Assembly: GCA_021825585.1 (NCBI GenBank)
Contig: JAKAGT010000014.1
Coordinates: 23,129-87,128 of the forward strand
DNA: 64,000 nt
Origin: Bacteroidota bacterium
Lineage (GTDB): Bacteria > Bacteroidota > Ignavibacteria > Kryptoniales > JAKASW01
Direction of reading: 5' to 3'
The notes beneath the pieces are model-generated. The model saw only the letters and a program-made list of their open reading frames with translations. It did no database searches and was not told where the DNA came from. Below, piece after piece: positions 1,089 to 52,086 of this stretch. The translations under genes and the position numbers were made by a program. The first letter of the stretch is position 1. Each line of letters begins with the position of its first letter.

Positions 1089-3209
1089 ATGATGTCTCCA
1101 ATCGATAGCACTTTGATACACTTAGCCATAGCAGTCTTGATCCTCCCGCTTGTCGGTTTTGTCCTGCTGATATTTTTCGGCAAGAGAATCCCGCGACAGG
1201 ATTTGTTAGAGACGGGAATCTTGTTCCTTGTGCTGGCATTTTCGATTTACATAATGGTGCAGAAGGTCTTTTTCATGACCGAGCCGAGAATCGACCTTAC
1301 ATTCAGATGGATCGATCTCGGTAATTTCTTCGGCGGCAGGAGCTTCCCGATAGACCTCGGTATAGCGATCGACAACATCACGGCGATCATGCTCGTGGTC
1401 GTTACATTGATAAGCGCTCTAGTGCATCTTTTCTCGCTGGCCTACATGCACGATGATGTCAGGTATTCGCGGTACTATGCGTACCTCGGGTTGTTCACAT
1501 TCTCGATGCTGGGCATCGTCCTCGCCAACAACATTCTGATGGTCTACGTGTTCTGGGAGCTCGTCGGATTGAGCTCATACCTCCTTATCGGCCACTGGTA
1601 CGAGAAGAAATCTGCCAGCGATGCGGGCAAAAAGGCGTTTATCGTGAACCGCGTCGGCGATGTCGGGTTCTTCATCGGAATTTTGATTATCTACTCGACC
1701 CTGCATACTTTCCTGTTTACGGGAATTTTCAGCGGGATCGCGCAGGGGCAGCTGTCGGGATCACTCCTGACGGTCGCCGGGATTCTGATATTCTGCGGCG
1801 CAGTGGGCAAGTCCGCTCAATTCCCTCTGCATGTCTGGCTTCCTGACGCTATGGAAGGCCCTACTCCCGTCAGTGCACTGATTCATGCCGCGACGATGGT
1901 TGCGGCCGGAGTTTACCTGGTCGCGCGCGTCTATCCGATGCTTACCGCGGGGGCTTTGACGGTCATCGCCTATATCGGGGCTATCACCGCTTTCATCAGC
2001 GCGACAATCGCCATCACACAGAACGACATTAAGAAGGTACTTGCTTATTCGACCATCAGCCAGCTCGGCTACATGGTGATGGGACTCGGCGTCGGAGCAT
2101 TTTCTGCCGGTGTGTTTCATCTGGTAACGCACGCCGCCTTCAAAGCGGGGTTGTTCCTCGGTTCCGGCTCGGTCATCTACGCGATGCACCATGAGCAGGA
2201 TATGAGGCAGATGGGTGGCCTCCGGAAAAAGATGCCGATCACTTACCTGGCCTTTGTAATATTCACCCTTTCAATCTCGGGTATACCATTTACCTCAGGG
2301 TTTCTGAGCAAAGACAGCATACTTGCTGGCGCGTTCACGTACGGAGTGCTCACGGGGAACATACTCATCCCGATAATCGGCTACACCGTGGTCTTCCTGA
2401 CGGCTTTCTATATGTTCAGGCTGATTATCATGACTTTCCACGGCGAGCCGCGCGACCATCACAAGTACGAGCATACAAAGGAATCTCCGGCTGTCATGAC
2501 TATTCCCCTGATAGTGCTCGCGGCTCTCTCACTGTTCGTGTTCTACAGCTTCAACCCCTTCAATCCGGAACAGGGATGGTTCCTGCATTCGGTCGTCCAG
2601 CCGGAAACCGTCGTCCCCGTCGCACAGCGCTACACGTGGGAGCAGTCGACCGTACCCCAGGACTCGGTAAACCTGGCAGCCGTCGCTTCCGTGGTCCCCG
2701 CCGGCGTAAATCCCGAACCTGCATCGCCGATGTACGAAGAAGTCATGGAGGAAACCCATTATACGGGTTTGGCCATATCGCTGACGCTCGCAGTACTCGG
2801 ACTCCTGGCAGCGTTTGTAGTGTATCAATGGAAGAAGATCGATGCGGAGAAACTGAAACAGAGGGTAAAACCGGTTTACACATTCCTGTATAACAAGTGG
2901 TACTTCGACGAACTTTACGGTGCGACGGCTGTGGCCGGTACGCTGGCGGTAAGCAGGGCGCTTTCATGGTTCGACGGTCATGTCATCGACGGAATCGTAA
3001 ACGGTGCGGCAACTCTGACTCGCGTCTGGTCTACGCTAAGCGGCAAGTTCGATCATTATGTGGTCGATGGCCTCGTCAATTTTTCCGGATGGTTTGCGGG
3101 ATTTCTCGGAAAGGGCGCCCGCAAAGCGCAGACCGGCAAGGTTCAAACATATATAGTCTTCGCCCTGTTGGGTGTCATAATATTGTTTTTTGCATTCAGG
3201 TCGTTTTGA
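1089..3209 (+). CDS. nuoL: NADH-quinone oxidoreductase subunit L
   Basis: 706 aa with antiporter-like motifs (WELVGLSSYLLIGHW, SAQFPLHVWLPDAMEGPTPVSALIHAATMV) and a C-terminal lateral-helix region. GAGGAA precedes the ATGATG start. Confidence 0.95.
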   Translation: MMSPIDSTLIHLAIAVLILPLVGFVLLIFFGKRIPRQDLLETGILFLVLAFSIYIMVQKVFFMTEPRIDLTFRWIDLGNFFGGRSFPIDLGIAIDNITAIMLVVVTLISALVHLFSLAYMHDDVRYSRYYAYLGLFTFSMLGIVLANNILMVYVFWELVGLSSYLLIGHWYEKKSASDAGKKAFIVNRVGDVGFFIGILIIYSTLHTFLFTGIFSGIAQGQLSGSLLTVAGILIFCGAVGKSAQFPLHVWLPDAMEGPTPVSALIHAATMVAAGVYLVARVYPMLTAGALTVIAYIGAITAFISATIAITQNDIKKVLAYSTISQLGYMVMGLGVGAFSAGVFHLVTHAAFKAGLFLGSGSVIYAMHHEQDMRQMGGLRKKMPITYLAFVIFTLSISGIPFTSGFLSKDSILAGAFTYGVLTGNILIPIIGYTVVFLTAFYMFRLIIMTFHGEPRDHHKYEHTKESPAVMTIPLIVLAALSLFVFYSFNPFNPEQGWFLHSVVQPETVVPVAQRYTWEQSTVPQDSVNLAAVASVVPAGVNPEPASPMYEEVMEETHYTGLAISLTLAVLGLLAAFVVYQWKKIDAEKLKQRVKPVYTFLYNKWYFDELYGATAVAGTLAVSRALSWFDGHVIDGIVNGAATLTRVWSTLSGKFDHYVVDGLVNFSGWFAGFLGKGARKAQTGKVQTYIVFALLGVIILFFAFRSF

Positions 3210-3273
3210 AAAACAGCTACACTGTGAATTTTAAATCGAGAATTGAGAATTTAGAAATATCATTGGAGGAATA

Positions 3274-4878
3274 ATGCAGTATCAATTCCTTGGAATTGGG
3301 TATCTGACGTGGATTACTTTTCTGCCTATCTTGGGAATGATAGTGGTTCTGCTCATCCCGAGAGCGAGTACAAATGCGATGAAATGGACGGCGCTGGGAG
3401 CTACAATATTGCAGCTCGTATTTGCGGCGCTGATCTGGATCAATTTCAACCCGGCCCTCACCGGCATAAACGACGTTAGCAAATTCCAGTTTGTCGAGAA
3501 GGCAACGTGGATTAATCTTCAGGGAGTGGGCTGGTTCGGACATGTGGTGATCGAGTACTTCCTGGGTATCGACGGGCTGAGTCTTCCAATGATCGTCCTG
3601 ACGTCGCTGATCTCCTTCGTCGGTGTGGTTGCGTCCTGGAACATCAACAAGGCCCAGAAGGGGTACTTTGCGCTTTACCTCCTGCTCGACACGGGTATGA
3701 TGGGCGTGTTTGTTGCGCTCGACATGTTCCTTTTCTACATGTTCTGGGAAATCATGCTTCTCCCGATGTACTTCCTCATCGGAATTTGGGGAGGTCCGAG
3801 GCGGGAATATGCTGCCATCAAGTTTTTTCTCTATACTCTGCTCGGGTCCGTCCTGATACTTCTTGTCATGCTTGCCCTCTACTTCAGCGTAAGCATCAAA
3901 GATCCGGTAACCGGCCAGATGACGCATACGTTCAATATGCTGGCAATGATGAACCCGGCCAACTACGATCCCAACTCCATTCTCGGCGGGATCGGGACAT
4001 ACTGGAGGGACGTGGCGTTCATCGCCCTGTTCATAGGCTTTGCCATCAAGGTGCCGATTTTCCCGTTCCACACATGGCTTCCGGACGCACACGTCGAAGC
4101 GCCGACCGCAATCAGCGTCATCCTGGCGGGCGTGCTGCTGAAGATGGGAACTTACGGGTTCCTCAGGATCAGCTTTCCGATTTTCCCTGATGCCATGCTG
4201 AAGTACGCATTCCCTCTGGCAATCTTAGGCTTTATAAATATCGTCTATGGCGCGCTCTGTGCGATGGCACAGACCGATTTCAAGAAACTTATCGCCTATT
4301 CCAGCATCAGCCACATGGGCGTCGTTCTCCTGGGCATCGCGGCGATGAATACGCAGGGAGTATCCGGCGGCGTGCTGCAGATGTTCAACCACGGCGTAGT
4401 GACTGCAATGCTCTTCCTTGTAGTCGGCGTGATTTACGACAGGGCGCACACGCGCGGCGTGAACGATTTCGGCGGACTCGCGAACCAGATGCCTGTCTAC
4501 ACCGGGATCATGACGGTGGCTTTCTTCGCGGCAATCGGGCTGCCGGGTCTCAGCGAGTTTGTGAGCGAGATGCTCTCCTATCTCGGAGCGTTCCAGACGT
4601 TCCAGTGGGTCACGATCTTCGCCAGCATCGGAATTCTCCTGACGGCGGGCTACATGCTCTGGACTTTGCAACGGGTGTTCCTTGGCCAGCTCCCTGAGAA
4701 ATGGAAGGGCCTTCCCGACGTAAACGGCAGAGAACTTGTGGCTTTTGTCCCGCTTATGGTCGTAGTTATTCTGCTCGGCATCTTCCCGTCGATTCTTCTC
4801 CACCCGATGAACGCCTCCCTGGATCATCTGGTCGATTTCGTTCACAGGGTGGGAACCGGCTTGACTGCCGTAAAGTAA
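3274..4878 (+). CDS. nuoM: NADH-quinone oxidoreductase subunit M
   Basis: 534 aa, antiporter-like (FPFHTWLPDAHVEAPTAISVILAGVLLKMG). GGAGG Shine-Dalgarno upstream. Confidence 0.95.
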   Translation: MQYQFLGIGYLTWITFLPILGMIVVLLIPRASTNAMKWTALGATILQLVFAALIWINFNPALTGINDVSKFQFVEKATWINLQGVGWFGHVVIEYFLGIDGLSLPMIVLTSLISFVGVVASWNINKAQKGYFALYLLLDTGMMGVFVALDMFLFYMFWEIMLLPMYFLIGIWGGPRREYAAIKFFLYTLLGSVLILLVMLALYFSVSIKDPVTGQMTHTFNMLAMMNPANYDPNSILGGIGTYWRDVAFIALFIGFAIKVPIFPFHTWLPDAHVEAPTAISVILAGVLLKMGTYGFLRISFPIFPDAMLKYAFPLAILGFINIVYGALCAMAQTDFKKLIAYSSISHMGVVLLGIAAMNTQGVSGGVLQMFNHGVVTAMLFLVVGVIYDRAHTRGVNDFGGLANQMPVYTGIMTVAFFAAIGLPGLSEFVSEMLSYLGAFQTFQWVTIFASIGILLTAGYMLWTLQRVFLGQLPEKWKGLPDVNGRELVAFVPLMVVVILLGIFPSILLHPMNASLDHLVDFVHRVGTGLTAVK

Positions 4879-4900
4879 AAGATAAGGATGTATTTATAAG

Positions 4901-6397
4901 ATGGCACAGACCATATACGAGAGTTTCGGCTACCTTCTCCCCGAAACCATGCTTTCGATCTTCTTCATTCTTACGCTCATGACCGCCCTGGTCGGCAAGA
5001 GGCGGAGCAAATACCTCCCTGCTTATATGGCTCTGCTCGGAATCGTGCTCGCCGGCATCTTTGTCTTCAGGCAGATAGGCGTCGACGAACTTGTCTTCAG
5101 CGGGATGTACGCGGTAGATCCTTTCAGCTGGTTCTTCAAGGTCATCTTCCTGGCTACAGGAATCCTGATAATACTGTTTTCACTGCAGAGTCGCGAGCTC
5201 GATGCGGTAGCTACCAAGTATCCCGAATATTTCAGCCTGATCCTGGCTCTAACCATCGGTGCGTTCTTCATGGCGGGTTCATCCAACCTGCTGATGATGT
5301 ATCTGTCGCTCGAGCTGGTAAGCATTTCCTCTTACATCCTTTCTGGCTTCACGAAGGAGAATGCCCGCGCCGACGAAGCGTCTTTGAAGTACGTGATTTA
5401 CGGCGCGTTCTCATCCGGCTTGATGCTCTATGGCATCTCGCTTATCTACGGCATGACGGGCGAAACGAATCTTTACGCCATGAACCAGGCCATCGCGGTC
5501 GGAAACATACCCAGGATCACAATGCTGATTGCAGTAATTCTCATGCTCGTCGGCCTCGGCTACAAGATCAGCGCAGTGCCTTTCCACTTCTGGACCCCGG
5601 ACGTTTATGAGGGCGCTCCGATAACGGTGACCGCCTTCCTGTCGGTCACGTCCAAGGCGGCAGGATTCGCGATGCTGATGAGATTTTTCAAGATAGGTTT
5701 TATTGATTTGACGGCGGCACCTGCTATGGCAGGGATGTGGGGCATCTTCAAAGGTCTGAACTGGACCGATATCATAGCGGTTCTATCGGTGCTCACGATG
5801 TCCGTCGGCAACCTTGTGGCGCTCTGGCAGTCGAACATGAAGCGCCTCCTCGCATATTCCAGCATAGCGCACGCAGGCTACATCCTCATGGGCTTCGTGA
5901 CCCTGACCAACCAGGGGATGTCTGCAATGCTGCTCTACTTCGTTGCTTATCTCCTGATGAATCTGGGCGCCTTCTATGTCGTTATGCTTATTGCGAATAA
6001 GTATCACACCGAGAATATCGAGGACTACAGGGGACTCGGCTACCGCTCCCCTTACGCGGCGTTCGCGCTGACGGTGTTTCTGTTCTCGTTAACCGGTATC
6101 CCGCCGACGTTCGGGTTTATCGGGAAATTCTATCTCTTCTCTGCGCTGATAAGCACGCACTATATCTGGCTGGCGATAGTCGGCGTTATCAACAGCGTCG
6201 TGTCGCTTTACTACTATGCCAAGGTCGTCCGCAATATGTACCTTGTCGAACCGATTGAGAAGTCGAGGATCGAATTCGATTTCGGGAGCAATCTTCTGAT
6301 GACGCTGCTCGTCGTTCCCAACATCGCATTGATGCTTTACTTCACGCCTGTACTTAGCTGGGCGCAGTATTCGGTGACGATGTTCGGCCTGCGCTGA
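4901..6397 (+). CDS. nuoN: NADH-quinone oxidoreductase subunit N
   Basis: 498 aa, antiporter-like (VPFHFWTPDVYEGAPITVTAFLSV). Last gene of the nuo series. Confidence 0.95.
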   Translation: MAQTIYESFGYLLPETMLSIFFILTLMTALVGKRRSKYLPAYMALLGIVLAGIFVFRQIGVDELVFSGMYAVDPFSWFFKVIFLATGILIILFSLQSRELDAVATKYPEYFSLILALTIGAFFMAGSSNLLMMYLSLELVSISSYILSGFTKENARADEASLKYVIYGAFSSGLMLYGISLIYGMTGETNLYAMNQAIAVGNIPRITMLIAVILMLVGLGYKISAVPFHFWTPDVYEGAPITVTAFLSVTSKAAGFAMLMRFFKIGFIDLTAAPAMAGMWGIFKGLNWTDIIAVLSVLTMSVGNLVALWQSNMKRLLAYSSIAHAGYILMGFVTLTNQGMSAMLLYFVAYLLMNLGAFYVVMLIANKYHTENIEDYRGLGYRSPYAAFALTVFLFSLTGIPPTFGFIGKFYLFSALISTHYIWLAIVGVINSVVSLYYYAKVVRNMYLVEPIEKSRIEFDFGSNLLMTLLVVPNIALMLYFTPVLSWAQYSVTMFGLR

Positions 6398-42891: not shown

Positions 42892-42933
42892 AGCCGCAGC
42901 AGCTTTTCGAATTGGGTCGAGACCGCTGCGGCT
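42892..42933 (-). terminator. Hairpin after the cytochrome operon (possible terminator)
   Basis: AGCCGCAGC (42892-42900) pairs with GCTGCGGCT (42925-42933), a 9-bp stem around a 24-nt loop, 27 nt after the stop. On the minus strand it is followed by CUUCUUC. Confidence 0.3.
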
Positions 42934-42960: not shown

Positions 42961-43761
42961 CTAATGCATATTGCTCAGCTGCTTGCCATCGTAGAATCTG
43001 TCTTTATGTGAGAGAGAGTAGACGTAGTTTGCCAAATCCCATCTTTGCTTGTCGGTCAGTATTTGCGCGTATGACGGCATCGGGGTTCCGTTGAGCCCCG
43101 TACTGAAGATGAGATAGATCTTTTGCGGACTCCTTCCCATTTTGATATCCCAATAATGAGTCAGGTTCGTGGGTTGGATATGATGCCCCTCGTCATCTGT
43201 CACGGTAGGTGCAGCCGGACCGTTTCCTTCGCCGGTGATGCCATGGCAGCTCCAGCAATGCATGTTCAGGTAAACCTCGCGGCCACGCTCGATACTGTTC
43301 AACGTGTAAGGTATCGGAGTTGAAATCCTGACGGTGTCCAGCGGGTACTGGGACGAATCGCTGAAAGCCGGTGAGAGTGTCTTGATGTACTCTACAACCG
43401 AGTACTGATCTGCGATGCTCATTTGTGCGAAGGACGGCATTGCGGTGTGGTAAATGCCTGAATTTATTGTCCTTAGCAGGTCGTAGTTCGTGGGGAGCTC
43501 TCCGGAAGCTGTACTGCGGAACTTGTAAACTCCGAGTTTGAAATCTCTGGGCTTCGTTCGGAGGGAGACCGAGACGGGGCCGCTACCGTCACCGTTGTCG
43601 CCGTGACATGGTGCGCACGCCTCGTGATAAACTGCCTTGCCTCGCGCCACGCTCACCTGGTCCGAGCCGTTGAAACTCGTGGCGCAGGAGTATAGAGCGA
43701 GAGATAATGAAAAAGCCGCCACCAGTGCTGTAAATTTGCCAACTTTCGTTTTCATTTTCAT
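42961..43761 (-). CDS. Dihaem c-type cytochrome, probable lipoprotein
   Basis: 266 aa with the leader ..FSLSLALYSC. Two CxxCH motifs (CAPCH, CWSCH), each followed by a Met-Pro ligand motif (TAMPSF, TPMPSY). GGAAGGGGG Shine-Dalgarno, 9 nt after the upstream stop. Confidence 0.8.
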   Translation of the reverse strand: MKMKTKVGKFTALVAAFSLSLALYSCATSFNGSDQVSVARGKAVYHEACAPCHGDNGDGSGPVSVSLRTKPRDFKLGVYKFRSTASGELPTNYDLLRTINSGIYHTAMPSFAQMSIADQYSVVEYIKTLSPAFSDSSQYPLDTVRISTPIPYTLNSIERGREVYLNMHCWSCHGITGEGNGPAAPTVTDDEGHHIQPTNLTHYWDIKMGRSPQKIYLIFSTGLNGTPMPSYAQILTDKQRWDLANYVYSLSHKDRFYDGKQLSNMH

Positions 43762-43770
43762 CCCCCTTCC

Positions 43771-44982
43771 TCAGAATCCCACCAGAACGCCGAGTGTCGT
43801 CAGGGTCGTCTTCGTGTCGCTCCCGGCGGCAGGCGTGTTGTCGTCAAGATAGCTGAGCTCAGCATATGCGCCCACGTTCGGGGCAAAATGATAACGAATT
43901 CCTCCGGTCCATTGATTCTGCTTTTCACTTGTCTGATTCACATCGACAAAATCATATCTGCCGTAGATGAAAAATTTCTCCGGGACAATCAGCACATTCA
44001 GTCCAAGAAAACCTCCATCCATTGTCTGTTTTATCCCGACGATGTTGTCGTCCGTGGCGCTCATGTACTGGAACGACAGATCGAATCTCTTGGTCCAGGG
44101 GTCATTTGCCTCGACGGCAAATCCATATCGGTTCATATTATCGGTCACGTTGTTTACTGCAAGCTCCTTGCCCCCGTAGTAGTACAATCCTAATCTGAAA
44201 GGGGCGTTGTCGATGTAAGCGGTCTGTTCAAGCATCAGGAAGTTAGCTTCGTTTGAATTGAGGGGGTCACCTCCATCCGTTCCATCGCTTACTGCCGCTT
44301 CATAGCGGAGGCCGTCCAATATCTGAGGGAAGAAACCGTACACTGACGCGGCCCACTGCGGGTCGGCTATCAGCAGCGTACCACCAGCCGGGTTGTAGTC
44401 GTAGATGAGATAATCTGCAGATTCGACGATCGTCGTGTTGTCCGGAAATGTGTTCCACAGGCGGAAGCGCCCGAACCTGAAATTCAGATTGCTCTGCCCG
44501 TCGGGCCCCGCGAGATTGTTGAACATTATGCTCATCGTTTCTATCGAAGGCGAATACTGGCCCGGCCCGGTGATCCCAATGGGTGCGGCCAGAAAGTAAC
44601 TCAAGTGTTTCGCTATAGTCCCCGCGGTAAAAAGGTCAAGTCCGCTGGGTTGAAAGGTTAACTCGTTGCTCGATGTCTTAATGCCTCCTGTCGTCGTTAC
44701 GGTGTGTGCCGACACAAAGGACGGATAGAATACGAATGAGAGCGACAGCGGTTCCTGGGCCCAGATCGGTTCGGACTCGTCCGTTCCCGGCAGCTGGTAG
44801 CCGTTGATCTGGAAGCGTCTCCCGTAGTCGTTGAGGACCGGCGGCACGGTATGACATCTGAAACAACTGACATGGTATTTTCTTGCAAAGAGTGGGATAG
44901 CCCCGGCCTGATTCGTCGTAACCGCGACCGATGCTACAGCAAACCCCAATAGAATAGCAAAACGAAAGGGAACAAGTCTCAT
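43771..44982 (-). CDS. Outer-membrane beta-barrel protein with an N-terminal CxxCH (fused cytochrome-porin architecture)
   Basis: 403 aa: signal peptide (..TTNQAGA), C40-F-R-C43-H44 within FARKYHVSCFRCHTVPPVLNDYG, then an alternating-hydrophobic, Gly/Tyr-rich sequence ending ..TLGVLVGF. GGAGGG Shine-Dalgarno. Confidence 0.6.
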   Translation of the reverse strand: MRLVPFRFAILLGFAVASVAVTTNQAGAIPLFARKYHVSCFRCHTVPPVLNDYGRRFQINGYQLPGTDESEPIWAQEPLSLSFVFYPSFVSAHTVTTTGGIKTSSNELTFQPSGLDLFTAGTIAKHLSYFLAAPIGITGPGQYSPSIETMSIMFNNLAGPDGQSNLNFRFGRFRLWNTFPDNTTIVESADYLIYDYNPAGGTLLIADPQWAASVYGFFPQILDGLRYEAAVSDGTDGGDPLNSNEANFLMLEQTAYIDNAPFRLGLYYYGGKELAVNNVTDNMNRYGFAVEANDPWTKRFDLSFQYMSATDDNIVGIKQTMDGGFLGLNVLIVPEKFFIYGRYDFVDVNQTSEKQNQWTGGIRYHFAPNVGAYAELSYLDDNTPAAGSDTKTTLTTLGVLVGF

Positions 44983-45057
44983 ATTTACCCTCCGGGTAGT
45001 TTGTGCTTAAGCGGACAGTTGAATTCTAATCGTGCTTCGTAAATTCAGCCGTCGTCC

Positions 45058-45792
45058 CTATTTCAGAGTGAAATCGACGGTGGCGGTCTTGCCCGCAGTC
45101 ACGGTTACTTCCTGCGTCTCTTCGATTGGCTTGGAGAATTCCGGTTTCCCGCTTATGTCCTTGGTACCCCATCCTTCATGCCACATCACAATCTTGTATT
45201 TGCCGGCAGGAACGTCCGCGAGTTTAAATGCACCTTCTTTGTCCGTGGCAGTTGCGAATCCATCGCCGGAAACATAAACATAGCAATTCATCCACGGATG
45301 TACATCGCATCTCATCATATACATCCCAGGCTTTCTTACATGCTGCACGACCTTCATCCCCTTGACGGGTTCGGCAATATTGAATGCTGTCTCGTTATTT
45401 GAAGCGAAGTAGCCGTGAACATTATGGAACAGCGGGTCGCTGTTGGTAACGGTGAACGCCTCTCCATGATTCACCACAAGAACATGCGGATGATAGGCGC
45501 AGTCTTTCTGATCGATGTCATACTTCGATGGTGATACCTTTTCGGGTTTGGCCTTTGCTCCCTCGATGTAAACCACAGCATATTCAACGCCTCCTCCTTT
45601 GGAGACAATGAGTCTGTCGAGAGAAGCCTCGTTGCCGCACACGTTGTTGTTGTACGTTACTTTATATGGCTTCATAGTCGGGGCCGACCCGGCGAATGTC
45701 ACTGTTCCTTGCACCGTGCCTGTCTGTCCATAGGCAAGTCCAAAACCTAACAATACTGCAAAAATGGATGTGATGATCTTGTGGGCTTTCAT
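45058..45792 (-). CDS. Periplasmic cupredoxin-like (type-1 copper) protein flanked by Ig-like segments
   Basis: 244 aa with a signal peptide. Ligand-like pattern FHNVHGY ... MRCDVHPWM (His; Cys-x2-His-x2-Met). AAGGAG Shine-Dalgarno. Confidence 0.7.
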   Translation of the reverse strand: MKAHKIITSIFAVLLGFGLAYGQTGTVQGTVTFAGSAPTMKPYKVTYNNNVCGNEASLDRLIVSKGGGVEYAVVYIEGAKAKPEKVSPSKYDIDQKDCAYHPHVLVVNHGEAFTVTNSDPLFHNVHGYFASNNETAFNIAEPVKGMKVVQHVRKPGMYMMRCDVHPWMNCYVYVSGDGFATATDKEGAFKLADVPAGKYKIVMWHEGWGTKDISGKPEFSKPIEETQEVTVTAGKTATVDFTLK

Positions 45793-46055
45793 TCTAATTT
45801 ACTCCTTATTCTGTTTACCAGTTCTTTCCAAATACAACCTGGATGTAAGGACTATAATGAAACTTTCGTTCTATTAGTTCCTTATTGCGGTAAATAGAGT
45901 TGAAATCATTGCAAATTAGAGGGGATCTGGCGAGCTGGACATCGAGGAGTGAGGCGGTTGGGGGAATACTTCCATGTCGTCGACCGCCAGAATGCTCGAC
46001 AGGTTCCTTCCCAGGCGTGCAATTCAGGAACAGCCTGTCTTAAAACGGATAGAAA

Positions 46056-48116
46056 TTATTCTTCTCCGCGAATAGACCTATACTTCTTCAGCTTGCCTTC
46101 TACGACCGCTGCCAGCAGATCCGGATCAACCGGCTTGGTCAGATAATCGTCGACGCCAAGCTGAACCCCGGCTCGAACAAAGAAACTCTCGTGCATACCG
46201 CTTATCAGTATGAAGGGTACCTTCTTCAGGTGAGGAATTTTCTGTACCTGTTCATAAAACGAAAAACCATCGCCCTCCGTCTCCGAGAATAAGACGTCTG
46301 AGATGATTATGTCCACGTTCGTCGTCTCGAGGACTTTCAAGGCGGCGGTAGGGCTATTGCCGGTCAGGACACCGTACCCATATCCCTCGAGCACCTTGGT
46401 AACTGTGTCGAGAAGTTCGTGGTCGTCATCGACCAGCAAGATCACTCCTTTCAACACTGCCCGTTGGAAGGCAGCGAATATGAAAGGTCCAAGTTTAGAA
46501 GACTCCTTCCCTGTGATCTGGTATTTAGATTTAAGCTCTTCGAGGGCCCCCTCTTCATCCGACCTGATTCGCCCGTTTTTTATTTCTTTTTCGACCTCCG
46601 TCGTATAAGCCTGCAGCCTGATCTTGCTTTCGCACTCAAGATGGTCCTCGAAGGTTAACTCGAGGATCTCACGCAATTGCATCAGTTCCACGGCGGTATC
46701 TTCTGTAATCGGCGGACTGGCCCACGCCTTTCTGAGCCGCCCCCGGTAAATCTCGAGCTTCTGTTCGAGAGTGTCGGGAAGTTTGACGCCAAGCAATTTC
46801 AGTCTCTTCTCAAGTCCGTACTCGACTTCGCTTGTTGCTTCGTCCAGCCGAGCCTCGAATTCTCTCTCCATCTCAGCCTTCAGGGCAGCCCTCGTCTCAT
46901 TGAGCTTTCGCTGTTCTTCCTCTACGACACGCTTCCTTTCCATCTCGAGCTTGGTCTGGCTCTCCACTATCTCCTTTTTCATCCGCATCTCTGTTTTCTC
47001 GCGGGCGGCTCTGAGTTCGGCTTCAAGCTTAGTATCGTATTCGGCCTCGAGCTGCTTCCTCATCTCACTTTGCTTCTTCCCGAGTTCATTCCGTTCATTC
47101 TGGTTTATTTCGTCCAGACGTTTTTTCAGTCCGGCCTGCGACTCGAGTTCAAGCTTTTTGTATCTCTCTTTGTACAGGTTTTCAAGCTTGTCCTGCTGGA
47201 AATTGATTTCAGCCTCGATATTCTTCTTGTCTGCCTGCCACTTTTCGTCAAATTCCTTTTGCAGACGTGCCCGGACCTCTTCAATCGATCTGTCCCGTTC
47301 TTTTGCCTGCTCGGCTATGGTAGAGGCTTTTACCCTGGCAATCTCTTCGGAGAGTTTTTCCTCGAATTCTCCCTCCATCTGCTTCTTGCTGTCTTCGATC
47401 GCCTTCCGCTGTTTTTCCAGCAGGCTCTGTTTTTCCTTTACAGCCGATTCCCTCAGCTCAAGCATCGATTTCTCGTAAAGCGAACTCATTTCGGATCGGG
47501 TTTCTTCTTCAGCCTTCTTACGTTCGCTGGCAAGCTGCTGTCGAAAGGCCGCCTCCATCTTCTCGACCTCGATTTCAAAGTTCTCCTTGTACTGCTTCTC
47601 CAGATCTTTTCTGAATCGCTCCTTTTCCTTCTCAAGGCTCGCGATCAAGGAGGCACGTTCAGCTTCCTGCCATTCCCGTTCCTTCTTCAAGGCGCCTGCA
47701 ATTCTCTGTTCGGCCTTTCTGATTTCATCGGTGAATTTCTTGTTGTATTCTCCTTCGAGCTTCTTCTCGATATCTGCCCGAATTGCCTCCTCATTTATCT
47801 GTGGTTTCTCTTCCTTCGGCTTGGTCTCTTTCTTCCCGGGAATTTCCTCCTGTTCCACCTCTCCCTGCGGCTGAACTTCTACAGGCGTCCTGGTGCCCCC
47901 TTTTTCGAGCGCCTGGAGTCGTTCCTCAAGTGCCAGCGCGTAGCCGTTGTTTGGATCGACCGCTCGAACGGATTCGAGCTCCTCTCTCGCCTCTACGTAT
48001 TTGCCTTCTCTAATGTTCTTGTCGGCCAGACGCAGGTGTGTTGCGATTTCCTGCCTGGTACTATCGGACGATTCTGGCGGTACCTGTTTGGGACCTTGAT
48101 TCCTCTTGAATAGCAT
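46056..48116 (-). CDS. Response regulator: N-terminal TPR-like motif, very long E/K/R-rich coiled coil, C-terminal receiver domain
   Basis: 686 aa. The REC domain has the canonical residues (LLVDDD, IIISDVLF, ILISG, YLTKP). No DNA-binding or enzymatic output domain is recognisable. Confidence 0.75.
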   Translation of the reverse strand: MLFKRNQGPKQVPPESSDSTRQEIATHLRLADKNIREGKYVEAREELESVRAVDPNNGYALALEERLQALEKGGTRTPVEVQPQGEVEQEEIPGKKETKPKEEKPQINEEAIRADIEKKLEGEYNKKFTDEIRKAEQRIAGALKKEREWQEAERASLIASLEKEKERFRKDLEKQYKENFEIEVEKMEAAFRQQLASERKKAEEETRSEMSSLYEKSMLELRESAVKEKQSLLEKQRKAIEDSKKQMEGEFEEKLSEEIARVKASTIAEQAKERDRSIEEVRARLQKEFDEKWQADKKNIEAEINFQQDKLENLYKERYKKLELESQAGLKKRLDEINQNERNELGKKQSEMRKQLEAEYDTKLEAELRAAREKTEMRMKKEIVESQTKLEMERKRVVEEEQRKLNETRAALKAEMEREFEARLDEATSEVEYGLEKRLKLLGVKLPDTLEQKLEIYRGRLRKAWASPPITEDTAVELMQLREILELTFEDHLECESKIRLQAYTTEVEKEIKNGRIRSDEEGALEELKSKYQITGKESSKLGPFIFAAFQRAVLKGVILLVDDDHELLDTVTKVLEGYGYGVLTGNSPTAALKVLETTNVDIIISDVLFSETEGDGFSFYEQVQKIPHLKKVPFILISGMHESFFVRAGVQLGVDDYLTKPVDPDLLAAVVEGKLKKYRSIRGEE

Positions 48117-48260: not shown

Positions 48261-48926
48261 TCATCCGTTATCCGCGGCGTGGTGCTTAATTATCTTCGCA
48301 TCGACCAGGAACACTACATCCTCGGCAATGTTTGTAGCATGGTCCGCAATCCGTTCGATGTGTTTGAGGGCGACGATCAAATGCGCTCCCGGTTCGACAA
48401 AATCCGGGTTCTTCTTCATCTCGCCTATAACGAAATGGAATTTCTGCCGGTTCATTTCGTCCACGACATCGTCCTCTTTACATATGCGTCGCGCCAGTTC
48501 GGCGTCTGCATGGATAAATGAATCTATGCTGTCGTGTACCATACGTCTTGCTACGTCGCCCATCTCGAGTATCGCCGTTGCCCGTACAAACCCGTGGTAG
48601 TTCTTCAGCGGTTCCACGCGCTGCGCTATGTTGACGGCCACATCTCCTATCCTCTCGAGCTCATGGTTGATCTTAATGGCGGACACTACGAGGCGCAAAT
48701 CTGTGGCGACGGGCTGTTCCAGTGCCATGATCTCGTCTACCTGCTGATCCAGAAGGTTATCGAACTGGTTCACCTTTTTTTCGCTTTCATATACCTTTTC
48801 GGTCTCCCCCACATCGCCGTCGTGAAGTGCCCGAAAGGCAAGATCAAGTTGCGAATCGACCAAACTCCCCATCTTTATAAGGTTGGATCTGAGTTTCTCC
48901 AGCAGATCCTCGAAATGCCTGTGCAT
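48261..48926 (-). CDS. phoU: Phosphate signalling complex protein PhoU
   Basis: 221 aa with two PhoU repeats (ELERIGDVAVNIA / HIERIADHATNIAEDV). Confidence 0.9.
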   Translation of the reverse strand: MHRHFEDLLEKLRSNLIKMGSLVDSQLDLAFRALHDGDVGETEKVYESEKKVNQFDNLLDQQVDEIMALEQPVATDLRLVVSAIKINHELERIGDVAVNIAQRVEPLKNYHGFVRATAILEMGDVARRMVHDSIDSFIHADAELARRICKEDDVVDEMNRQKFHFVIGEMKKNPDFVEPGAHLIVALKHIERIADHATNIAEDVVFLVDAKIIKHHAADNG

Positions 48927-48983
48927 AAGATTCTCTCCTTAGTCGAGTGGGAACAATAAGTCCCACACTTTTAAAATTACACT

Positions 48984-50036
48984 TTATTTCTTTAAAAAAA
49001 AGCTGAACTCAGATCCCTTTCCAACCTCACTCTTTACCTCAATTTTGCTGTTGTGAGCCTCTACAATGTGCTTAACAATAGCAAGACCGAGCCCCGTTCC
49101 GCCGACACTCCTGCTCCTGTCCTTGTCCACCCTGTAGAATCTCTCGAAGATTCTCGCAAGGTGTTCCTCTCCTATCCCGGTGCCGTTGTCCCTGACAAAG
49201 ACTCTGACGGAGTTCGGAAGTTCCGCGAACCCCACTTCGATCTTTCCTCCCCTGTCGGTGTATTTTATTGAATTATCTATCAGATTGGATATCGCCTGTC
49301 TGAGTCTGTCCCTGTCTCCTAGAACAAGAACTTCGTGGGAATCGGAACGGTATTCGAGCAGGATGTCTTTTTTCTTCGCGATAGGCTGCATTTCCTCGGT
49401 CAGGGTACTTAGAAACTGAGAGATATCGAAATATCGGAAGCTCATTCTCATTTCGCCGCTTTCGATTCTCGAAATTTCGATGAGGTCATTAAGCAGGGTG
49501 TTCAGTCGCTCGGAATGCTGGTATGCCTTCTGAAGAAAATCCCTGTTCACATTCTCGTCGTCGATGGCCCCGTCTATCAGAGTTTCGATGAAGCCCTGGA
49601 TGCTGAATATGGGCGTGCGCAATTCGTGGGACACGTTAGCGAGGAACTCGCTTCGCACCCTCTCGAGTTTTTCGAGCTTTGCGATATCCTCCTTAAGGTT
49701 TCCGACGATCTGATTTACGAGTTTGCCTATCCGGCGGAGTTCCGGCGTCCCCGATTCCGGCAGACGAACGGAAAGATCCCCGGCACTGATTCTTTGCAGT
49801 GCATCCACTATGGTGTTTAGTATCTTAGTCTGACGGTTTCTGAAAGAAAGGAATACCTCTTCAAAAATATAGAACAGGGAAGCGCCAACGATCGCCGTAA
49901 TTACCAGATGATTTTCAAGGAATGTCGCCTGCAGTGAAAGAAGGTCCTCGAGAATCAACAGGAGCAGATATACGACCGCCCCTGCTGCGATCGCAATAGC
50001 TATCCTTGTCTTGTAGTCAGAAAAGAGTCTGGTCAT
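48984..50036 (-). CDS. phoR: Sensor histidine kinase (PhoR-like)
   Basis: TM region plus HAMP domain, H-box FLANVSHELRTP, and N/G boxes (DNSIKYT, DNGTGI, GGTGLGLAIV). 4-nt overlap with the upstream regulator gene. Confidence 0.8.
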   Translation of the reverse strand: MTRLFSDYKTRIAIAIAAGAVVYLLLLILEDLLSLQATFLENHLVITAIVGASLFYIFEEVFLSFRNRQTKILNTIVDALQRISAGDLSVRLPESGTPELRRIGKLVNQIVGNLKEDIAKLEKLERVRSEFLANVSHELRTPIFSIQGFIETLIDGAIDDENVNRDFLQKAYQHSERLNTLLNDLIEISRIESGEMRMSFRYFDISQFLSTLTEEMQPIAKKKDILLEYRSDSHEVLVLGDRDRLRQAISNLIDNSIKYTDRGGKIEVGFAELPNSVRVFVRDNGTGIGEEHLARIFERFYRVDKDRSRSVGGTGLGLAIVKHIVEAHNSKIEVKSEVGKGSEFSFFLKK

Positions 50037-50716
50037 TCCGCCTTAAATTTGTATCCGACCCCTTTGATGGTTTCAATCATCTCAGCGTGGTCGCCGAGCT
50101 TTTCACGGATCTTGCGTATATGCACGTCCACCGTTCTGTCTCCTACGTAGACATCCGAGCCCCAAATCCTGCTTAGAAGTGTCTCACGGGATATGACCTT
50201 GCCTTCATGGGAAGCCAGGTAATATAGTATCTCGAACTCTTTCCGGGGGAAGAACACCTGTTCGCCCCCGATTTTGACCAGGTAGCTTTCTCTGTCTATG
50301 ACAACCTTCCCGAAGTCAATGCTTTTATTCTCCTCGCTCTTGACACCTTCATATCTCCGGAGCACTGCACGGATCCGCGAAACTAATTTCCGCGGGCTAA
50401 TTGGTTTCACGATATAATCGTCCGCTCCGAGCTCAAGTCCGAGGACTTCGTCGAATTCCGCACTTTTCGCAGTCAGGAAAATGACGGGGATATCCATCGT
50501 CCTTTCGTTTTGGTTCAGTGCCTTAATCACCTCGTATCCGTCCTTGCCCGGAAGCATAATGTCCAGGAGGATAACATCCGGTCTGACTTCGGTCGCCTTC
50601 AGAAGCGCTCCGTCGCCGGTAGCAGCGGATTCAACCCTGAAGCCTTCGCGTTCAAGGTTATAACGTATAAGTTGAACAATGTCATTCTCATCGTCAACAA
50701 CAAGGACGGTTTTCAT
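50033..50716 (-). CDS. phoB: OmpR/PhoB-family response regulator
   Basis: 227 aa with REC (VVDDEND, ILLDIMLPG, LTAK) and a winged-helix domain (TVDVHIRKIREKL, IETIKGVGYKF). Confidence 0.85.
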   Translation of the reverse strand: MKTVLVVDDENDIVQLIRYNLEREGFRVESAATGDGALLKATEVRPDVILLDIMLPGKDGYEVIKALNQNERTMDIPVIFLTAKSAEFDEVLGLELGADDYIVKPISPRKLVSRIRAVLRRYEGVKSEENKSIDFGKVVIDRESYLVKIGGEQVFFPRKEFEILYYLASHEGKVISRETLLSRIWGSDVYVGDRTVDVHIRKIREKLGDHAEMIETIKGVGYKFKAE

Positions 50717-51393: not shown

Positions 51394-51456
51394 TCGGGGC
51401 GGTGGGATTCGAACGGACGACCTTGGCGCGAAGCGCGCTACGCTCTAACCGGGCTG
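51394..51456 (-). other. tRNA-like 3' fragment (degenerate copy)
   Basis: Matches tRNA-Pro over the D-loop, variable loop, T-arm and 3' acceptor strand, apart from two T-stem mismatches (GTCCG vs CCCAC). The anticodon arm is replaced and its stem carries one mismatch, and there is no 5' acceptor strand. Confidence 0.7.
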
Positions 51457-51696
51457 TTGGGTTGTTAAGTCCATGAGGTATCTTTTCGCACCGCGTGCCT
51501 TGATTTGCTTCTCTCGCCTGACGGCCTCAGGGCGTGTCGGGAACTCTTCTGCGTGAACTAGCTGCCACGGAATACCCGGCTTTATGGATTTGGTTTCCCC
51601 TGAGTTGTGTTCGATCAGTCGATTTTCAAGATCTTCGGTACTACCCGTGTAGTATCTATCAGTCCTCTTACTATACAGAATATAGACTTTGTACAT
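51445..51696 (-). CDS. Small GIY-YIG (URI-domain, YhbQ/COG2827-like) nuclease-family protein, copy 2
   Basis: 83 aa: MYKVYILYSKRTDRYYTGSTEDLENRLIEHNSG... (GIY-YIG core, Arg, Glu, Asn). The ORF-track start at 51750 runs through the tRNA-like fragment and is unlikely. Confidence 0.8.
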   Translation of the reverse strand: MYKVYILYSKRTDRYYTGSTEDLENRLIEHNSGETKSIKPGIPWQLVHAEEFPTRPEAVRREKQIKARGAKRYLMDLTTQQPG

Positions 51697-51702
51697 CGAT
51701 CG

Positions 51703-51765
51703 TCGGGGCGGTGGGATTCGAACCCACGACCTTGGCGCGAAGCGCGCCACGCTCTAACCGGGCTG
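51703..51765 (-). other. tRNA-like 3' fragment (stems intact)
   Basis: CAGCCCGGTTAGAGCG + TGGCG-CGCTTCG-CGCCA + AGGTC + GTGGG-TTCGAAT-CCCAC + CGCCCCGA. Outside the anticodon arm it is identical to tRNA-Pro. It lacks U33 and a 5' acceptor strand. Confidence 0.7.
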
Positions 51766-52005
51766 TTGGGTTGTTAAGTCCATGAGGTACCTTTTCGCAC
51801 CGCGTGCCTTGATTTGCTTCTCTCGCCTGACGGCCTCAGGGCGTGTCGGGAACTCTTCTGCGTGAACTAGCTGCCACGGAATACCCGGCTTTATGGATTT
51901 GGTTTCCCCGGAGTTGTGTTCGATCAGTCGATTTTCAAGATCTTCGGTGCTACCCGTGTAGTATCTATCAGTCCTCTTACTATACAGAATATAGACTTTG
52001 TACAT
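51754..52005 (-). CDS. Small GIY-YIG nuclease-family protein, copy 1
   Basis: Protein identical to copy 2. The ATG lies 6 nt (CGATCG) after the tRNA-Pro discriminator base. The last 3 codons and the TAG stop lie in the tRNA-like D-loop sequence. Confidence 0.8.
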   Translation of the reverse strand: MYKVYILYSKRTDRYYTGSTEDLENRLIEHNSGETKSIKPGIPWQLVHAEEFPTRPEAVRREKQIKARGAKRYLMDLTTQQPG

Positions 52006-52011
52006 CGATCG

Positions 52012-52086
52012 TCGGGGCGGTGGGATTCGAACCCACGACCTCCTGGTCCCAAACCAGGCGCTCTAACCGGGCTGAGCCACGCCCCG
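52012..52086 (-). tRNA. tRNA-Pro (TGG)
   Basis: CGGGGCG/CGCCCCG acceptor, D-arm GCTC-AGCCCGGTTA-GAGC, anticodon arm CCTGG-TTTGGGA-CCAGG, T-arm GTGGG-TTCGAAT-CCCAC, discriminator A. Confidence 0.9.

Follow-up and report, generated by a model that had tools for sequence, protein, structure and literature searches.

We focused on a three-gene unit within a 64,000-nucleotide stretch of contig JAKAGT010000014.1 (hereafter, the window). The genes encode a predicted secreted type-1 cupredoxin, a fused cytochrome-porin and a dihaem cytochrome c lipoprotein. By analogy with known Cyc2 systems, the unit is probably (about 60% in our estimate) a Cyc2-type electron-uptake module that would pass electrons from Fe(II) to a terminal oxidase or reductase. 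The source organism is an uncultured Kryptoniota member (class Kryptonia, Bacteroidota sensu GTDB), and the closest relatives of all three proteins were found in metagenome-assembled genomes labelled Candidatus Kryptoniota/Kryptonia or 'Bacteroidetes bacterium'. Homologue and locus scans revealed that all three genes are kept in related genomes, and they are thus real genes and not chance open reading frames (ORFs). An earlier reading of the DNA (hereafter, the original prediction) proposed a Cyc2/Cyc1/rusticyanin-like logic for this operon; the three roles were supported and the porin was placed in the Cyc2 family, but its two partners turned out not to be homologues of Cyc1 or rusticyanin.

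A Cyc2-family cytochrome-porin

Membership of the Cyc2 family was judged by the motif, length and barrel criteria of Keffer et al. 2021 (PMC8406198). A member of the family is expected to have a signal peptide and a single CxxCH, preceded by an AxPxFAR[Q/K][T/Y] motif that is described as unique to Cyc2 and followed four residues later by PxL; it should also be at least 365 amino acids (aa) long and form a 16-strand porin resembling OprO/OprP (PMC8406198).

The 403-aa protein (43771-44982, minus strand) starts with a predicted signal peptide (residues 1-28), in which a basic N-terminus and a hydrophobic core are followed by an A-G-A cleavage site immediately ahead of the conserved motif; the AlphaFold2 (AF2) model has a helix at residues 4-21 in this region. 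The motif itself, A28-I-P-L-F-A-R-K-Y36, is followed by three residues (HVS) and then, just past the signal peptide, by the sole CxxCH of the protein, C40-F-R-C43-H44 (CFRCH, nucleotides 44865-44851). The PxL is P48-V-L50, with P48 four residues past H44, and the whole N-terminal region reads AGA-IPLFARKY-HVS-CFRCH-TVP-PVL-N. At the other end, the protein closes with ...VLVGF, i.e., a terminal Phe.

The original prediction staked the porin on a barrel fold and on a CxxCH conserved among homologues, and both were borne out. The CFRCH was invariant in alignments of 19 (A1) and 40 (A3) sequences, and the Cyc2-defining residues, including P48 and L50, were invariant in the 19 homologues of A1 down to 33% identity. 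Pfam reported a Porin_4 match at 3e-9, and AF2 predicted a beta-barrel at residues 82-402 (predicted local distance difference test (pLDDT) 72, predicted template-modelling score 0.72), in which DSSP counted 16-18 strands. The best PDB matches to the barrel in Foldseek were 16-strand porins, with Omp32, PorB, OprP (2o4v) and OprO (4rjw) at about 1e-12; OprP and OprO were also the structural templates used for Cyc2PV-1 of Mariprofundus ferrooxydans (PMC8406198).

At E ≤ 1e-3, the profile of A1 retrieved 3348 relatives from among 1.84 billion representative proteins; 1021 of these also passed E ≤ 1e-10. Of the full-length representatives, 119 were listed, and the majority of these have the strict motif while the others deviate from it by one or two residues; the motif-to-CxxCH spacing is the same in all 119, and the C-terminal residue is aromatic in most. 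The published family tree of Cyc2 already holds ~1,600 sequences (PMC8406198). The 403-aa protein shared 19-29% identity with the 39 diverse family representatives in A3, and a search with the 40-sequence profile returned mostly the same close clade and a handful of other proteins. Cluster look-ups of 10 distant representatives gave no link to the named Cyc2 of known iron oxidisers.

Motifs and model together establish the 403-aa protein as a predicted porin of the outer membrane whose periplasmic N-terminus has one motif for the binding of a c-type haem. Because every published sequence and structure feature that was tested was found, it is almost certainly a member of the Cyc2 family, and the case is stronger than the 'Cyc2-like' of the original prediction.

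A dihaem cytochrome c lipoprotein of the Kustc0457 family

The gene following cyc2 (42961-43761, minus strand) encodes a 266-aa protein in which the previously noted lipoprotein-type leader, two CxxCH and MP motifs could all be located. The lipobox is LYSC with C26, the CxxCH motifs are at residues 49 (CAPCH, nucleotides 43617-43603) and 169 (CWSCH, nucleotides 43257-43243), the MP motifs are at residues 108 and 228, and Pfam assigned two PF00034 (class-I cytochrome c) domains. Among solved structures, chain B of PDB 6H5L, Kustc0457, is by far the nearest relative (6h5l_B; E 1.2e-53, 186 bits, 44% identity over 212 aligned positions). The alignment (query 39-253 versus chain 9-221) spans essentially the whole mature protein and has both CxxCH and both MP motifs in register. 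On this sequence evidence, the 266-aa protein is a member of the Kustc0457 family.

Electron transfer is the proven role of Kustc0457, a subunit whose two haems are both six-coordinate and which in Kuenenia prolongs the haem circuit of Kustc0458, a nitrite-reducing HAO-like enzyme (PMC8042395). The spacing between both CxxCH motifs was 119-121 residues in all 23 dihaem homologues read from the related loci described below, and no gene with more than two CxxCH adjoined the module in the 14 loci for which neighbouring ORFs had been tabulated. An assignment of the 266-aa protein as a c4-type Cyc1 orthologue was rejected, as the cytochrome c-552 of Acidithiobacillus ferrooxidans (1H1O) aligned only near a haem motif, at about residues 47-63 (E = 0.2, 14 bits).

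A cupredoxin embedded in a beta-sandwich

The 244-aa protein encoded upstream of cyc2 (45058-45792, minus strand) has a cupredoxin domain at residues ~73-174, inserted between the first strand (24-33) and the remainder (180-243) of a CarboxypepD_reg-like beta-sandwich. Pfam matched CarboxypepD_reg (1.9e-9) and Copper-bind (0.079), and NCBIfam matched amicyanin (6e-4); the public annotation, 'carboxypeptidase regulatory-like domain-containing protein', names the sandwich only. The AF2 model (pLDDT 90) was matched by Foldseek to amicyanin, the C-terminal cupredoxin of a NirK, plastocyanin and pseudoazurin, with target-normalised template-modelling scores of 0.65-0.74.

The type-1 copper ligand set proposed earlier was retained. 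The predicted Cu ligands H123 (in FHNVH) and C162, H165 and M168 (in CDVHPWM; codons of the ligand loop at nucleotides 45309-45289) did not vary among the 23 homologues of alignment A2, the most distant of which share 29% identity. H126, the second His of FHNVH, was unconserved and is not a ligand. Sequence and model agree that the protein is a type-1 cupredoxin of the amicyanin/pseudoazurin-like kind, with predicted Cu binding. Rusticyanin was rejected as its identity, for no rusticyanin chain appeared in the PDB sequence search (E ≤ 1) or among the 50 best Foldseek matches.

Three further residues of the family, W204, H205 and C98, are invariant outside the Cu site. The same cupredoxin-in-beta-sandwich family also occurs without Cyc2 on three Gammaproteobacteria-type contigs (L025, L027 and L028), where the gene follows that of a ~840-aa HEAT-repeat protein; in L025 and L027 a CydA-like protein with c-type cytochromes is encoded nearby.

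Conservation of the module and its linkage to oxidase genes

With each prokaryotic species represented by a single genome, a scan yielded 24 cyc2 loci (24 genomes), all from Kryptoniota, Ignavibacteria, Kapabacteria or unclassified Bacteroidota bins except for one labelled Alphaproteobacteria. The dihaem gene was immediately 3' of cyc2 in all 22 loci with enough sequence, across three classes; it was duplicated in two, and the haem motifs were always kept. The cupredoxin gene preceded cyc2 in 13 of the 23 informative loci and was absent from the thermophilic Kryptonium/Thermokryptus/Chrysopegis clade. The conserved synteny expected by the original prediction accordingly holds for the cyc2-dihaem pair, but only in part for the trio.

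Haem-copper oxidase genes of two unrelated types were located directly upstream of the cyc2 module in seven loci. In two of them (L005, 47-5125, and L006), whose Cyc2 is 71-73% identical to the 403-aa protein, the genes for COX1-COX3-COX4-COX2-haem O synthase-membrane cytochrome c (466 aa) are followed contiguously and on the same strand by cupredoxin-cyc2-dihaem; this oxidase set is A-type (aa3-type cox cluster). In the other five (L011-L014 and L024, about 3100-6000), a divergent COX2-COX1-X set lies upstream on the same strand and abuts or overlaps cyc2, with X being a 270-aa protein without Pfam match that is fused to COX1 in L014. Because two unrelated haem-copper oxidase operons are joined to the module in two clades, an inward electron flow to a terminal oxidase is supported, and this linkage is the best available evidence for it. 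The direction of flow, which had been left open, is less so now that the module is seen to follow immediately on operons for cytochrome c oxidase in close relatives.

Two other loci have nitrogen-oxide genes adjoining the module instead of an O2 reductase. One (L021) has NosD-NosF-NosY(cytochrome c fusion) upstream and qNOR downstream, and the other (L016) has NnrS and a Cu-ATPase. It is conceivable, if unlikely, that the three proteins act mainly in N-oxide/peroxide metabolism, where the carriers would feed N2O, NO or nitrite reductases with Cyc2 as the entry (Fe(II)-dependent denitrification), or would serve only as periplasmic carriers. This would suit two structural matches: the closest solved homologue of the dihaem protein is the partner of a nitrite-reducing HAO-like enzyme, and the cupredoxin model has the C-terminal cupredoxin domain of a NirK among its nearest solved structures. 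The linkage to O2-reducing haem-copper oxidases in seven loci, versus N-oxide genes in two, argues against it, and no N-oxide reductase genes were found in the 64-kb window. Moreover, N-oxide reduction would be another electron sink and is compatible with uptake via Cyc2.

Those two loci nevertheless count against an Fe(II)-to-oxidase module, and several other observations do so as well. Two more distant Cyc2-family genes have other neighbours, one being 14 bp after a CCP/MauG dihaem peroxidase gene (L031) and the other beside genes for flavocytochrome c sulfide dehydrogenase (FCSD) and an NrfD-type complex (L029). Because these members adjoin unrelated redox genes, the Cyc2 family is not tied to a single pathway, which suggests that it serves several redox pathways; Keffer et al. 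also called the function of divergent Cyc2 homologues uncertain (PMC8406198). In the window, the original prediction had noted that no terminal oxidase is adjacent, and in fact no terminal oxidase genes were detected in the whole 64 kb (tblastn for cox genes and annotation of the window). The haem domain of the 403-aa protein (residues 22-78) had a pLDDT <50, so the AF2 model is uninformative on the position of the haem in the barrel. Binding of haem by the 403-aa protein and of Cu by the 244-aa protein is predicted from conserved motifs.

Phosphate genes are another recurrent neighbour. PhoU with a PhoR/PhoB-like pair or pstSCAB adjoins the cyc2 module in both Kryptoniota clades in differing orientations (48261-50716, minus strand, in the window; L010-L012, L014 and L024), an adjacency that may reflect inherited gene order only or a phosphate-iron link. 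The flanking Pho genes, together with the resemblance of the barrel to the phosphate porins OprP and OprO, could indicate a porin that is mainly a phosphate-/anion-selective channel of the Pho regulon with a sensory or protective haem. We regard this as very improbable: the OprO/OprP likeness is general to Cyc2 (PMC8406198), the Pho genes are on the opposite strand or one gene away, and no PhoU match was obtained at the Ignavibacteria/Kapabacteria loci. Such a channel would also leave the tight universal coupling to the dihaem gene and the invariant haem motif unexplained.

Three loci without the cupredoxin (L017 5633-5974, L019 5511-5867 and L022 5460-5867) encode a conserved ~115-135-aa Cys-rich protein directly upstream of cyc2. 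It has the pattern ...C-x2-C-x2-C...GHGNC... and no Pfam match. A Crp/Fnr regulator and a universal-stress-like protein are also encoded near cyc2 in these loci.

Proposed electron flow

The electron flow through the module was reconstructed by analogy with the Cyc2 of Mariprofundus and Acidithiobacillus and with Leptospirillum Cyt572. Dissolved Fe(II) would enter or dock at the pore and reduce the Cyc2 haem, from which the electron would pass to the dihaem cytochrome c lipoprotein and then to the soluble type-1 cupredoxin, the order of the carriers not being fixed. Its final destination would be a reductase that faces the periplasm, such as a cytochrome c oxidase, and whose genes would lie elsewhere in the genome; in some lineages N-oxide reductases would take this place.

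The same components might in principle work outward, so that electrons from respiration would end on an acceptor outside the cell, such as Fe(III) or humic substances. Relatives of Fe(III) reducers, e.g., Ignavibacteriaceae, do carry Cyc2 homologues (PMC6344600), and ferric iron respiration was proposed in the description of Kryptonia, but via a different multihaem cluster (PMC4737851). Outward flow seems improbable to us, given that the characterised Cyc2 proteins are all Fe(II) oxidases with positive potentials (e.g., 208 mV for Cyc2PV-1; PMC8406198), that a position at the high-potential end of the chain is indicated both by the type-1 cupredoxin and by the association with cytochrome c oxidase operons, and that one haem cannot span the outer membrane to a solid acceptor.

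For electron uptake from Fe(II), the described Kryptonia relatives bear on the likely benefit. Since they are heterotrophs (PMC4737851), the module would most likely provide some additional energy or serve to detoxify Fe(II), and would be less likely to support obligate lithotrophy. A broader proposal, which we put forward tentatively and would not yet bet on, is that the Kryptoniota-Ignavibacteria-Kapabacteria lineage has assembled, with Cyc2 at its centre, a full Fe(II)-to-oxidase chain of its own out of non-orthologous components. A Kustc0457-type lipoprotein would stand in for Cyc1 and a sandwich-embedded amicyanin-like cupredoxin for rusticyanin, and the whole would have been joined to two unrelated oxidase operons by clade. 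If this holds, widespread soil and hot-spring bacteria held as heterotrophs would be unrecognised facultative iron oxidisers, and the dihaem gene would serve, next to cyc2 itself, as a marker to tell working Cyc2 systems apart from orphan homologues.

Gene arrangement, expression signals and surrounding genes

The three co-directional genes of the minus strand are separated by gaps of 75 bp and 9 bp, and these, like the Shine-Dalgarno sites, were present as originally placed: AAGGAG at 45807-45802 for the cupredoxin gene, GGAGGG at 44993-44988 for the porin gene and GGAAGGGGG at 43770-43762 for the dihaem gene. The last of these directly abuts the annotated ATG at 43761, which is why the true start of the dihaem gene may be the second ATG at 43755. 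The cyc2 and dihaem genes, 9 bp apart, are translationally coupled.

The only long gap in the unit is the 263-bp intergenic region 5' of the cupredoxin gene (45793-46055, minus strand), the presumed promoter of all three genes. A sigma-70 consensus scan of this region found no site, the consensus being uninformative for this phylum. At the other end, RNA folding revealed a stem-loop (42892-42933, minus strand; -27.8 kcal/mol, z = -3.5 versus shuffles) 28-69 nucleotides past the stop codon of the dihaem gene, which likely marks the transcript end. It lacks a clean T-run and was missed by a consensus terminator scan.

The gene directly upstream of the cupredoxin gene (46056-48116, minus strand) encodes a protein of 686 aa, which combines a weak TPR match at the N-terminus with a very long, coiled-coil-like stretch rich in Glu/Lys and a C-terminal receiver without output domain. 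It is conserved in seven of the related loci (L001-L004 and L007-L009) and is the cause of a strong GC and AT skew at 46-48 kb. The rest of the 64-kb window is housekeeping, including genes for complex I subunits, succinate dehydrogenase, 2-oxoglutarate dehydrogenase, an outer-membrane protein of the Omp85 family, and the PhoR/PhoB-like pair with PhoU.

Further along the minus strand (51445-52086), two small GIY-YIG genes (51445-51750 and 51754-52005) are arranged in tandem and are ~99% identical over the gene. Each copy is preceded by the same sequence resembling a tRNA 3'-half, GGTCGTGGGTTCGAATCCCACCGCCCCGA, with the complete tRNA-Pro (52011-52086) present only at the upstream copy; tRNA-Cys and tRNA-Gly genes lie just beyond it. 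The pair looks like an element that was duplicated together with a tRNA end.

Implications for the annotation of Cyc2 loci

Homologues of Cyc2 were already reported in Ignavibacteriaceae, Ignavibacteriales and Bacteroidetes genomes by motif-/FeGenie-based surveys (PMC6344600, PMC8478452), which makes the finding less novel. Our literature search found no paper linking Cyc2 to Kryptoniota and no description of a cupredoxin-cyc2-Kustc0457-like unit. The locus adds a lineage-specific set of partners to a known kind of Cyc2 system, and no new mechanism.

Cyc2 is the main genomic marker for inferring iron oxidation from metagenomes, though its function is uncertain outside a few iron-oxidising lineages. 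The locus supplies a clean conserved context in a poorly known Bacteroidota branch, i.e., cyc2 with a fixed dihaem partner, often a cupredoxin and sometimes an oxidase operon. It also exposes two carrier families that public annotation hides as 'hypothetical protein' and 'carboxypeptidase regulatory-like domain-containing protein'. It is of use for annotation and leads to a prediction of facultative Fe(II) oxidation in Kryptoniota.

Comparison with known systems

The 403-aa protein shares with the Cyc2 of M. ferrooxydans (Cyc2PV-1) and A. ferrooxidans and with Leptospirillum Cyt572 the signal peptide, the single N-terminal CxxCH, both motifs, a length of ~400 aa and an OprO/OprP-like barrel. 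As for the known Cyc2, it is associated with periplasmic c-type cytochromes and, here in relatives, with cytochrome c oxidases. It differs from them in its Kryptoniota host, from a lineage described as heterotrophic.

Two systems with multihaem proteins were considered and rejected. In the MtrAB, MtoAB and PioAB conduits a periplasmic decahaem cytochrome sits in a 26-strand porin, whereas here one haem motif is fused to a small barrel, and no multihaem genes were found within the three genes themselves or next to the module in the 14 related loci with tabulated neighbours. The 'unique iron respiration pathway' of Ca. Kryptonia is not this locus either, as that pathway is a multihaem cluster (pfam09698, pfam14522) (PMC4737851).

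For the partner proteins, full-length homology, two haem motifs and two MP motifs are common to Kustc0457 and the 266-aa protein; unlike Kustc0457, the latter is a predicted lipoprotein and is paired with Cyc2 instead of an octahaem HAO-like enzyme. The 244-aa protein resembles amicyanin, pseudoazurin and plastocyanin in its His...Cys-x2-His-x2-Met ligand set, His-Asn motif and cupredoxin fold. Those are single-domain proteins, whereas its cupredoxin domain is embedded in a beta-sandwich with an invariant Trp-His pair.

The nearest counterpart of the unit as a whole is the rus operon of A. ferrooxidans (cyc2-cyc1-ORF-coxBACD-rus), which likewise combines the roles of haem-porin, dihaem cytochrome c and blue copper protein in one transcription unit; in L005 and L006 the likeness extends to an aa3-type cox cluster contiguous with the module. 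The unit differs from the rus operon in that its dihaem protein is not a c4-type Cyc1, its cupredoxin is not rusticyanin, the gene order is another one and the 64-kb window has no cox genes. As judged from sequence comparison and predicted structure, the dihaem cytochrome and the cupredoxin are analogues, not orthologues, of the Acidithiobacillus rus proteins.

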